Source: Verrucomicrobiota bacterium
GTDB lineage: Bacteria; Chlamydiota; Chlamydiia; Chlamydiales; SM23-39
Assembly: GCA_018239895.1 (NCBI GenBank)
Contig: JAFEGL010000045.1
Location: forward strand, 72,656 to 136,655
DNA length: 64,000 bases
Direction: 5' to 3'
The translations under genes were made by a program, and so were the position numbers. Positions 46,186 to 48,099 of this stretch are shown one piece after another (the stretch's first letter is position 1; every line of letters begins with the position of its first letter). The notes beneath the pieces were generated by a model. That model did not search any database. It saw only the letters and a program-made list of their open reading frames with translations, and was not told the DNA's origin.

Positions 46186-48099
46186 ATGAAACTGCTTTTT
46201 TTTGCCGCCCTTCGCAATAGCAAGCACCTCACGCTCGCTCTTTTGACTTTAGTCACGCTCCTTTTTCTCACCGTTGCCAACCAGTGCGAGATGTTTTCCG
46301 TCGGCCTGATGGCCAACACAGGAGCCGACTTTTTTACCCTGTTCCATCCGGAGGGGAAAAAACATAAAGACAAGATTGCTCTGAATGATGTGGTTAGGAC
46401 ATGGAAGGAAATCGACCACGATGGCGATGGCTACATCAATAAGCAGGACGCGGCTATTTACATGGCCCAAAGAAAAGATACGAACCCTCTCAATTGGGTC
46501 ATGCACAAGGTAGCGGCTCGGTTCGATTACGAGGAGAATTTCACTCTGCTGATCTTCATTTTGGTGGGGGTTGCCTTATTCAAAGCCTCGACGCTGTTTG
46601 CCGCCCGCTATGCGACTCAGCTCTTGTCAATCCGGGTGACGCGCGATTTAAGACAGCAGTTTTTCGAGCATATCCAGTCGCTTCCGTTGAGTTTTTATCA
46701 GGAGCAGAATTTGGGGAGCTTGTCTTCGAGAGCGGTCGGGGACGCCGGGCAAATCGCCTCGTCTCTCAATTCCTGCCTGACGAATTACCTTCAAACCCCA
46801 TTCACGATTGCGTCGACGCTTCTAGCTTGCTTCTATCTTTCCTGGCAGCTATCGATGATTATTTTTCTGGGATTGCCCCTGATTGTTGTCCCGGTCGTAT
46901 TTTTGACTCGACAGGTGAAGAGGATTACACGGCAGCTGCAGAAGAACCAGGAGACGTTTTCCTCGGTCCTTTTGGACTTTTTGGCCGGTATCCAAACGGT
47001 GAAGATCTTCGCCATGGAGGCCTTTTCTCTTAGGAAATACAAAGAGCAGAACGACCAGATGGCCCTCCTGGAGAGCAAGAGCGCCAAATACGGGCTATTG
47101 ACGAGACCTCTTTTGCACATGATTGCGACGGCGTGCTTGGCGATTGTGGTGCTGTTTGGCCTCTACACGCTCCACATGACGGTCGGCCAACTTTTGATGT
47201 TCTGTGGGCTTCTCCATCTGTTCTATGAGCCAGTGAAGAAATTCGCCGAAGAGAATGCAAACATCCAGAAAGGGGTCGTCGCCGCCGAGAGGATGTTTGA
47301 AGTCCTCCACCTGCAGCCCCAAATCCAAGATCAAGAAGGGGCCCTCTCCCTCGATAGCTTCAAAGAGATCATCGAGTTCGATCGGGTCTGGTTCAAGTAT
47401 AAAGACGAATGGGTTCTAAAAGATTTGAGTTTTACGGTTAAGAAAGGGGAGATCGTCGCCCTCGTCGGCGCGACGGGCGCAGGGAAATCGACGATCGTTC
47501 AACTTTTGCCCCGCCTCTACGAGGTGCAGCAAGGGGAGATTCGGGTCGACGGGGTTCCTATCAATGCCCTGACTCAAAGATCGCTCAGGGACCAGATCGC
47601 CTTTGTGCCGCAAAAACCGTTCCTTTTCTTTGACACGGTCTCCGAGAATATCGCGTTTGGTCGGAGCTTTTCTCGCGCGGAGATCGAGGAGGCGGCCCGG
47701 AAAGCCTACGCCCACGAGTTCATTGCCGATCTTCCCCAGACGTATGATACACTCCTCGCCGAAATGGGGAAAACTCTCTCGGGCGGCCAACAGCAGCGCT
47801 TGGCGATTGCTAGAGCGCTCGTGAAGCGGGCCCCAATCCTCGTCATGGATGAGGCGACCTCCTCTCTCGATGCGATTTCCGAAAATCGGATCAAGACGGC
47901 TCTTCGCGAATTGCAAGGCGAAGTGACCCAAATTTTGATCGCCCATCGTCTCTCGACGATCGAACATGCCGACAAGATCATCTTCCTCGAAAGGGGGCGC
48001 AAAATCGCCGAAGGGACGATCGAAGAGCTTTTGATCACCTGCACACCTTTCAGACTAATGTGGGAGAGCTACCACCATTCTGAGATCGCCCTCCATTAG
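46186..48099 (+). CDS. ABC exporter, fused permease/ATPase (MsbA-like), with an EF-hand loop in an enlarged TM1-TM2 loop
   Basis: Walker A GATGAGKST, signature LSGGQQQR and Walker B ILVMDEAT, with six TM segments. DHDGDGYINKQD at nt 46414-46449 lies between TM1 and TM2. Confidence 0.9.
   Translation: MKLLFFAALRNSKHLTLALLTLVTLLFLTVANQCEMFSVGLMANTGADFFTLFHPEGKKHKDKIALNDVVRTWKEIDHDGDGYINKQDAAIYMAQRKDTNPLNWVMHKVAARFDYEENFTLLIFILVGVALFKASTLFAARYATQLLSIRVTRDLRQQFFEHIQSLPLSFYQEQNLGSLSSRAVGDAGQIASSLNSCLTNYLQTPFTIASTLLACFYLSWQLSMIIFLGLPLIVVPVVFLTRQVKRITRQLQKNQETFSSVLLDFLAGIQTVKIFAMEAFSLRKYKEQNDQMALLESKSAKYGLLTRPLLHMIATACLAIVVLFGLYTLHMTVGQLLMFCGLLHLFYEPVKKFAEENANIQKGVVAAERMFEVLHLQPQIQDQEGALSLDSFKEIIEFDRVWFKYKDEWVLKDLSFTVKKGEIVALVGATGAGKSTIVQLLPRLYEVQQGEIRVDGVPINALTQRSLRDQIAFVPQKPFLFFDTVSENIAFGRSFSRAEIEEAARKAYAHEFIADLPQTYDTLLAEMGKTLSGGQQQRLAIARALVKRAPILVMDEATSSLDAISENRIKTALRELQGEVTQILIAHRLSTIEHADKIIFLERGRKIAEGTIEELLITCTPFRLMWESYHHSEIALH

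Follow-up and report, generated by a model that had tools for sequence, protein, structure and literature searches.

A predicted EF-hand domain in the first periplasmic loop of an MsbA-like ABC exporter of Chlamydiota

Introduction

What would a calcium-binding motif be doing in the outward-facing loop of a lipid exporter? The question is raised by a gene in a stretch of 64,000 nucleotides, hereafter the window, of contig JAFEGL010000045.1 (positions 72,656 to 136,655, forward strand; assembly GCA_018239895.1), which is deposited under the name Verrucomicrobiota bacterium and placed by GTDB in the chlamydial lineage SM23-39. The gene encodes an MsbA-like half-size ATP-binding cassette (ABC) exporter, in which an earlier reading made from the letters alone (the sequence-only reading) had pointed to a canonical EF-hand loop between the first two transmembrane (TM) helices. 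MsbA, a drug target, is essential to the outer membrane, and its periplasmic side is normally almost bare; EF-hands, for their part, normally act in pairs. The analysis described here favours, with moderate confidence, a small periplasmic cap domain on TM1 and TM2 with a single EF-hand as its core, which in the window's clade would bind a divalent cation, most likely Ca2+.

Results

The EF-hand loop and the conservation of its ligand positions

The bases at 46414–46449 (GAC CAC GAT GGC GAT GGC TAC ATC AAT AAG CAG GAC) encode the twelve residues DHDGDGYINKQD, which follow the oxygen-ligand rule of the EF-hand at positions 1, 3, 5, 9 and 12, with Gly at position 6 and a hydrophobic residue at position 8, and which satisfy the first 12 positions of the PROSITE pattern PS00018. 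This 12-position pattern occurs once in the window, as judged from six-frame open reading frames (ORFs) of at least 100 amino acids (36,558 residues), and it arose in 35 of 20,000 shuffles of the exporter protein, while a strict canonical EF pattern arose in 1 of 20,000. A chance origin of the motif is unlikely, and the stronger argument against it, stronger than the shuffles, is the conservation seen in aligned sequences.

A homology search with residues 1–140 returned 201 protein clusters, the best 120 of which were analysed; nearly all of these are 633–651 amino acids long and 64–89% identical in residues 1–140, three are shorter partial records, and the named records among them belong mostly to environmental Chlamydiota. 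The pattern D-x-[DNS]-x-[DNS]-G-x-[ILV]-x-x-x-[DE] is kept in 107 of the 120. Loop position 1 is Asp without exception (D77), position 3 is Asn in 95 and Asp in 19, position 5 Asp in 105 and Asn in 6, position 6 Gly in 119 (G82), position 8 Ile in 115 and Val in 5 (I84), position 9 Thr in 95, Ser in 20 and Asn in 4, and position 12 Asp in 69 and Glu in 47. No such constraint is seen at positions 2, 4 and 7 (entropy 3.25, 2.20 and 2.18 bits), and because the ligand positions are so much better conserved, selection appears to act on metal coordination and not on shape alone. The metal ligands themselves are, on this comparison of sequences, under selection in the window's clade, and the pattern is the one expected of them. 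The helix that enters the loop is likewise patterned in the homologs, which retain an acidic residue at 68, V69, an invariant W73 and I76.

Homology and predicted structure of the insertion

The Pfam models EF-hand_1, EF-hand_6 and EF-hand_7 match residues 70–88 at profile positions 3–21, below threshold, and a Pfam EF-hand match at E ≤ 0.01 is found in 22 of 70 family members. When residues 45–120 alone were used as a phmmer query against 1.84 billion representative proteins, 38 matches at E ≤ 0.001 were obtained, which fall into two groups: one full-length exporter together with N-terminal pieces, most of which match at residues 45–120, and proteins with many matched stretches over residues 22–54 of the query piece. 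A Pfam scan of seven of the matches identified five as multi-EF-hand proteins and one as an exporter (P0129), the last having no Pfam family (P0136); the Pfam-confirmed multi-EF-hand proteins were retrieved by the insert at library-wide E-values down to 1.6e-19. By hhalign, a profile of 70 inserts aligned with the third EF-hand of a calmodulin-like protein (probability 69.5%, E 4e-5) over 37 columns that take in helix, loop and helix. The AlphaFold2 (AF2) model of the insert alone consists of a helix at 66–76, a loop at 77–85 and a helix at 86–96, with a predicted local distance difference test (pLDDT) score of 90–92 over residues 69–88. The AF2 and hhalign results both set the loop between an entering and an exiting alpha-helix, and they bear out the sequence-only proposal of one EF-hand with flanking helices.

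The unclassified match, P0136, is a protein of 217 amino acids with about four tandem repeats, each with YHDGNGYVNSQHDGSW, and its match to the EF loop has an E-value of 1.2e-5; it may represent an unclassified repeat with EF-loop-like acidic turns.

Topology and identity of the exporter

Residues 67–170 of Escherichia coli MsbA align without gaps to exporter residues 122–225, and the short MsbA loop (…DDGFGKTDRSVL…) pairs with the last exporter residues ahead of TM2, and therefore about 55–60 extra residues lie between TM1 and TM2 of the exporter. A 19-residue hydropathy scan gives hydrophobic segments at 12–37, 116–141, 208–245 and 303–340. In the full-length AF2 model, which was built from a 75-sequence alignment, helices at 12–43, 49–52, 66–76, 86–95 and 101–112 precede TM2, and five long helices (119–165, 180–218, 220–271, 277–327 and 333–373) lead on to the ATPase domain, the last three hydrophobic segments of the hydropathy scan spanning these five. 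The insert itself is hydrophilic, with a hydrophobic helix to either side. Because five membrane passes separate it from an ATPase domain that is necessarily cytoplasmic, the modelled helix count, together with homology to MsbA, would place the insert in the periplasm. Several claims of the sequence-only reading are upheld in this way: its estimate of a loop of about 75 residues, against about 20 in typical exporters, was roughly right, at about 55 extra residues in the MsbA alignment; AF2 and hydropathy agree that the segment is a TM1–TM2 loop outside the TM helices; and the count back from the ATPase domain agrees that it faces the periplasm.

Beyond the EF-hand, the insert has a further short helix near whose start N100, P101, L102 and W104 are each kept in at least 118 of the 120 homologs, and in other clades too. 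Two candidates for a hidden second EF-hand, namely helix 101–112 with the FDYEEN loop and TM2, and helix 49–52 with the basic loop, were rejected, as each has no Gly at position 6, no acidic residue at position 12 and no match to the pattern.

The start codon of the gene is credible because the N-terminus, MKLL..AALRN..H, is kept in all homologs. Pfam recognises ABC_membrane (residues 113–349) and ABC_tran (residues 411–559), and Pfam, AF2 and Foldseek agree on the architecture of a type IV ABC exporter, with six TM helices and a C-terminal ATPase domain. The top NCBIfam model is MsbA (TIGR02203, 423.9 bits). A Foldseek search of the PDB with the full-length model is headed by MsbA entries (8tso, 7ph3, 6o30, 7bcw and 9bd6; E ~1e-29 to 1e-30, 29–30% identity), and when residues 1–225 are compared with PDB sequences all top matches are MsbA (E ~1e-13), other exporters following at 1e-7 or weaker. 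The gene accA lies immediately upstream of the exporter both in the window and in a distant Rhabdochlamydiaceae-type locus, and msbA and accA are presumably neighbours in C. trachomatis as well. In addition, two lysines that never vary in the family, K133 and K351, correspond in the alignment to R78 and K299 of E. coli MsbA, residues that bind the lipid A head group and whose mutation disrupts lipid-stimulated ATPase activity (PMC10945598). The exporter is MsbA-like, as the sequence-only reading had described it, and likely to be the MsbA orthologue; it is probably a homodimeric type IV ABC exporter acting as a lipid A or lipooligosaccharide flippase. The features of the gene are collected in Table 1.

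Table 1. Position of the exporter gene in the window and of the elements predicted within it.
Feature	Coordinates	Strand	Basis
MsbA-like half-size ABC exporter gene, 637 amino acids	46186..48099	+	Six TM helices and C-terminal ATPase domain (ORF, Pfam, NCBIfam, Foldseek)
TM1 (residues 12–43)	46219..46314	+	Hydropathy segment 12–37; AF2 helix 12–43
Periplasmic insertion in extracellular loop 1 (ECL1) (residues 44–118)	46315..46539	+	MsbA alignment; column conservation; common to the chlamydial family
Entering (E) helix (residues 66–76)	46381..46413	+	AF2; acidic 68, V69, invariant W73, I76
12-residue EF-hand loop DHDGDGYINKQD (residues 77–88)	46414..46449	+	Sequence, pattern, conservation, sub-threshold Pfam, hhalign
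Exiting (F) helix (residues 86–96)	46441..46473	+	AF2, 86–95 (full-length) and 86–96 (insert only, pLDDT ~90); starts at loop position 10, as is canonical
Fourth short insert helix (residues 101–112)	46486..46521	+	AF2; begins with near-invariant N-P-L-x-W
TM2 and cytoplasmic extension (residues 119–165), with invariant K133	46540..46680	+	AF2 helix; MsbA alignment
ATPase domain, cytoplasmic (ABC_tran, residues 411–559)	47416..47862	+	Pfam

Distribution across chlamydial families

Relatives of the exporter were found in 239 genomes by a scan of one genome per species, and the named records among the best 80 of these are for the most part chlamydial metagenome-assembled genomes (MAGs). Two family-counting searches gave 1093 and 350 protein clusters, which are overlapping sets. 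In the three homology searches, each taken to its best 120 matches, environmental clades, Rhabdochlamydiaceae and Simkaniaceae occupied all the places, and Chlamydiaceae were not reached. Among the best 120 of the 1093 clusters, which are of Rhabdochlamydiaceae type, the insert keeps W, I-D, G, I-T-K, A and N-P-L-N-W; Simkaniaceae-type orthologs mostly retain the acidic residue at position 12 and are degenerate at positions 3 and 5, and the Anoxychlamydiales are mixed for the canonical loop. On a FastTree tree of 306 full-length sequences, from which the insert columns had been removed, the canonical loop is present in 150 of the 166 members of the window's clade (~90%) and in 2% of the Rhabdochlamydiaceae clade, and its state changes at least 13 times, gain and loss of the ligand set being undecidable on this tree because it has no outgroup. 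The insert domain is general to the chlamydial families reached, and the full ligand set is specific to clades and can be lost.

The window's clade also differs in its flanking charges. It has a basic stretch ahead of the entering helix (GKKxKDK; residues 54–65, 46345–46380), where the net charge averages +2.1, and immediately before TM2 an acidic motif, F-D-x-E-x-N-F (residues 113–119, 46522–46542), whereas the clades with degenerate loops are without the basic stretch (net charge -0.6) and without the acidic motif, having Q or S for D or E. In the raw table E116 is acidic in 152 of 157 canonical and 24 of 149 non-canonical sequences. However, co-evolution of the canonical loop with D114/E116 or with the basic residues 54–65 is not supported, as phylogenetically independent pairs gave p ≥ 0.25 and the second trait rarely differs between the members of a pair; the link between loop state and the flanking charged motifs is one at clade level only.

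The exporter with its insert was also encountered in records labelled Verrucomicrobia (L005, L012, L066, L071 and L076) and Acidobacteria (L080) and in a MAG labelled "Chlamydia trachomatis" (L069). Those suspect records that are full-length and in the tree fall within chlamydial clades, and all seven bins are probably mislabelled.

Neighbouring genes

Downstream, an ORF of 627 amino acids (48112–49995, +) starts 13 nucleotides past the exporter stop; at E ≤ 0.001 Pfam assigns it to no family. On the other side of accA, a gene at 44074–45060 (+) encodes a protein of 328 amino acids that has a hydrophobic, Pro/Ala-rich stretch at its N-terminus and a YkuD L,D-transpeptidase domain (52.8 bits), and the stop of this gene overlaps the accA start by 4 nucleotides.

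Discussion

The present data allow a model to be proposed in which the first periplasmic loop of the exporter has been expanded into a small four-helix domain around one EF-hand, the bound ion of which would hold the domain folded atop the TM1/TM2 pair. We hold this account, with Ca2+ as the most likely ion in the window's clade, to be moderately probable. Ca2+ binding would probably be of modest affinity, because position 12 of the window's loop is Asp and not Glu, and Asp at that position lowers Ca2+ affinity; a low affinity might in turn suit a compartment in which free Ca2+ and Mg2+ can be high. The basic role of the domain is probably structural, or one of interaction at the periplasmic membrane boundary, and metal is not likely to be its reason for existing, since related families have the scaffold and not the ligands. 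The domain may, in analogy to the flippase PglK and its external helix, contact the emerging lipid substrate or a partner, with Ca2+ possibly serving as a clade-specific stabiliser or modulator.

A number of observations weigh against this model, in whole or in part. The full PS00018 pattern fails because position 13 of the loop is Ala, where a large hydrophobic residue is needed; of the 108 homologs that fit the pattern through position 12, 106 have Ala there as well, and only 1 of the 120 matches all 13. The Pfam EF-hand scores likewise stay under their curated cut-offs, at 16.6–19.8 bits against a gathering cut-off of 25.4 for EF-hand_1 and, with the insert in isolation, 27.5 against 30 for EF-hand_7. 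The claim of the sequence-only reading that the 12-residue loop matches at every diagnostic position holds for the first 12 positions of PS00018, with the correction that the thirteenth fails, and the PROSITE and Pfam scans that it had proposed as a check do not support it at the level of the curated models. A pattern scan of the exporter found no second EF-hand in the same chain. EF-hand proteins make up most of the PDB matches that Foldseek returned for the insert model, and about 31 residues can be superposed locally at 1.3–1.9 Å, but these matches are consistent with an EF-hand and not evidence for one, because all of their E-values exceed 1. The full-length AF2 model is mediocre (mean pLDDT 66, predicted template modelling score 0.42). 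With regard to function, the score for TIGR02203 falls short of the equivalog cut-off of 602, for which the insertion and chlamydial divergence may be part of the cause, and Q203 of the exporter stands at the position of E. coli MsbA R148, the third basic residue of the inner lipid A site (PMC10945598); because of this missed cut-off and this Gln, the substrate is assigned by inference only. Finally, the loops of the Rhabdochlamydiaceae-type orthologs have T or S at position 5 and Q or K at position 12, as in DTTGAGVITKQQ, so that 2 of 120 are canonical, and no canonical loop was seen among 45 Simkaniaceae-type loops. Because whole families have lost the ligands, Ca2+ binding is evidently dispensable for the exporter as such. 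The sequence-only reading had named loss of the acidic ladder in orthologs as grounds for abandoning it; the ladder is in fact kept in the window's clade (107 of 120) and degenerate in the Rhabdochlamydiaceae and Simkaniaceae orthologs, with the 13 or more changes of state on the tree as further departures from conservation.

These degenerate loops invite an alternate scenario, in which the domain is a scaffold derived from an EF-hand that binds no metal to any purpose and serves by its shape only, for example by docking a periplasmic partner or by forming an amphipathic cap at the membrane boundary, the acidic loop being inherited or electrostatic. Such a scaffold would account for the Rhabdochlamydiaceae-type inserts, in which the ligands at 5 and 12 are replaced and the surrounding motifs from the invariant W to N-P-L-N-W are nonetheless retained, as well as for the losses at positions 3 and 5 in Simkaniaceae-type loops and the repeated changes on the tree; the weakening of Ca2+ affinity by Asp at position 12 in the window's own protein points the same way. 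However, it leaves unexplained why, in the window's clade, the ligand positions should be so much more conserved than positions 2, 4 and 7, and why about nine-tenths of its 166 sequences should carry the full set, and we regard it as unlikely. Still more remote, to the point of being scarcely credible, is the suggestion that the motif arose by chance or that the segment is cytoplasmic or embedded in the membrane. Patterns of the PS00018 kind are known for false positives, and the Pfam scores do lie under threshold, but neither the rarity of the strict pattern among shuffles and of the 12-residue pattern in the ORFs of the window nor its conservation in the homologs fits with chance, and a hydrophilic segment set between two hydrophobic helices, with five membrane helices still to come before the ATPase domain, fits poorly with burial or with a cytoplasmic position.

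A bolder proposal develops the idea, put forward in the sequence-only reading, that the lone EF-hand of one subunit pairs with that of the other across the homodimer. Formed about the two-fold axis when Ca2+ binds, the pair would act as a clasp over the periplasmic gate and couple periplasmic Ca2+ to the outward-facing state and to the rate of export. It draws on there being only one EF-hand per chain, on the homodimeric state of this kind of exporter in the MsbA structures, and on the established ability of single EF-hand peptides to homodimerise when they bind Ca2+; a homodimer (1cta) and two domain-swapped dimers (1k9u and 1ht9) also appear in the non-significant Foldseek list. However, in the structures of Sav1866 and MsbA the TM1–TM2 loops are peripheral, at the outer margins of the two wings and well away from the two-fold axis, and an insert of about 75 residues may therefore fall short of its partner; an essential Ca2+ clasp is also hard to square with whole families that have the domain but lack competent ligands. 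We consider the pairing improbable, and equally doubtful the notion that EF-hands paired over the translocation exit would let envelope Ca2+ directly gate the export of lipid A or lipooligosaccharide. Were it true, chlamydiae would have a means of matching outer-membrane biogenesis to ionic conditions in the vacuole or extracellular medium, for instance when they pass between their infectious and replicative forms.

The preferred model, of a cap domain with a single EF-hand, combines elements that are each familiar. MsbA of E. coli, Salmonella, Pseudomonas aeruginosa and Acinetobacter baumannii (3b5w, 8tso, 7ph3 and 9bd6) has the same half-size type IV design of six TM helices and an ATPase domain, whereas the chlamydial exporter has some 55 additional residues, and in them the EF-hand, in its TM1–TM2 loop, carries Gln at the R148 position, and is a putative flippase of lipid A. 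With the canonical EF-hand of calmodulin and troponin C (PF00036, PF13499, PS00018) the insert shares the helix-loop-helix, Asp or Asn at positions 1, 3 and 5, Gly at 6, Ile at 8, Asn, Thr or Ser at 9 and Asp or Glu at 12, a like acidic and hydrophobic pattern in the entering helix (acidic 68, V69, W73, I76) and an exiting helix that begins at position 10; it departs from it in being a single hand, in Ala 13, in its Pfam scores below gathering and in its periplasmic site within a membrane transporter. The flippase PglK has an external helix between TM1 and TM2. In the Campylobacter jejuni protein this helix lies at the periplasmic membrane boundary, where it has been proposed to contact the lipid substrate (PMC4900756). 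PglK is thus likewise a type IV ABC lipid flippase with an extra helical element at that boundary, a likeness of structure for which no sequence similarity is claimed; the element in PglK is a single short amphipathic helix, and a metal site is lacking, whereas the chlamydial exporter would have four helices and an EF-hand. Extracytoplasmic EF-hand loops are also on record in Gram-negative bacteria, in EfhP of P. aeruginosa, the periplasmic CaBP of Caulobacter, lanmodulin and the EF-hand-like site of the lytic transglycosylase Slt35/MltB (PMC9132961, PMC13171946, PMC9260416, PMC12547810), but all of these belong to soluble proteins, membrane-anchored proteins or enzymes, most of which have two to four hands, and none is an insertion in an ABC exporter. 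Full-text searches of the literature on EF-hands in MsbA, in ABC exporters or in Chlamydia returned no description of the feature, in agreement with the sequence-only reading, which knew of none at this position. What is new is the combination, with an EF-hand domain placed within a type IV exporter at its first periplasmic loop; extracytoplasmic bacterial EF-hands and MsbA-type exporters are each known.

The finding describes a family, at the level of a phylum, of exporters with a folded periplasmic domain on TM1 and TM2, one large clade of which has a complete predicted Ca2+ site. Loops of the related families range from canonical through half-degenerate to fully degenerate, and this natural series offers ready-made controls for experiment. 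If the ion stabilises or regulates the exporter, no earlier case of a metal switch outside the cytoplasm is, to our knowledge, on record for a type IV ABC exporter, and the domain would provide a handle on how the export of chlamydial lipooligosaccharide is controlled, in bacteria whose envelope biology is unusual.

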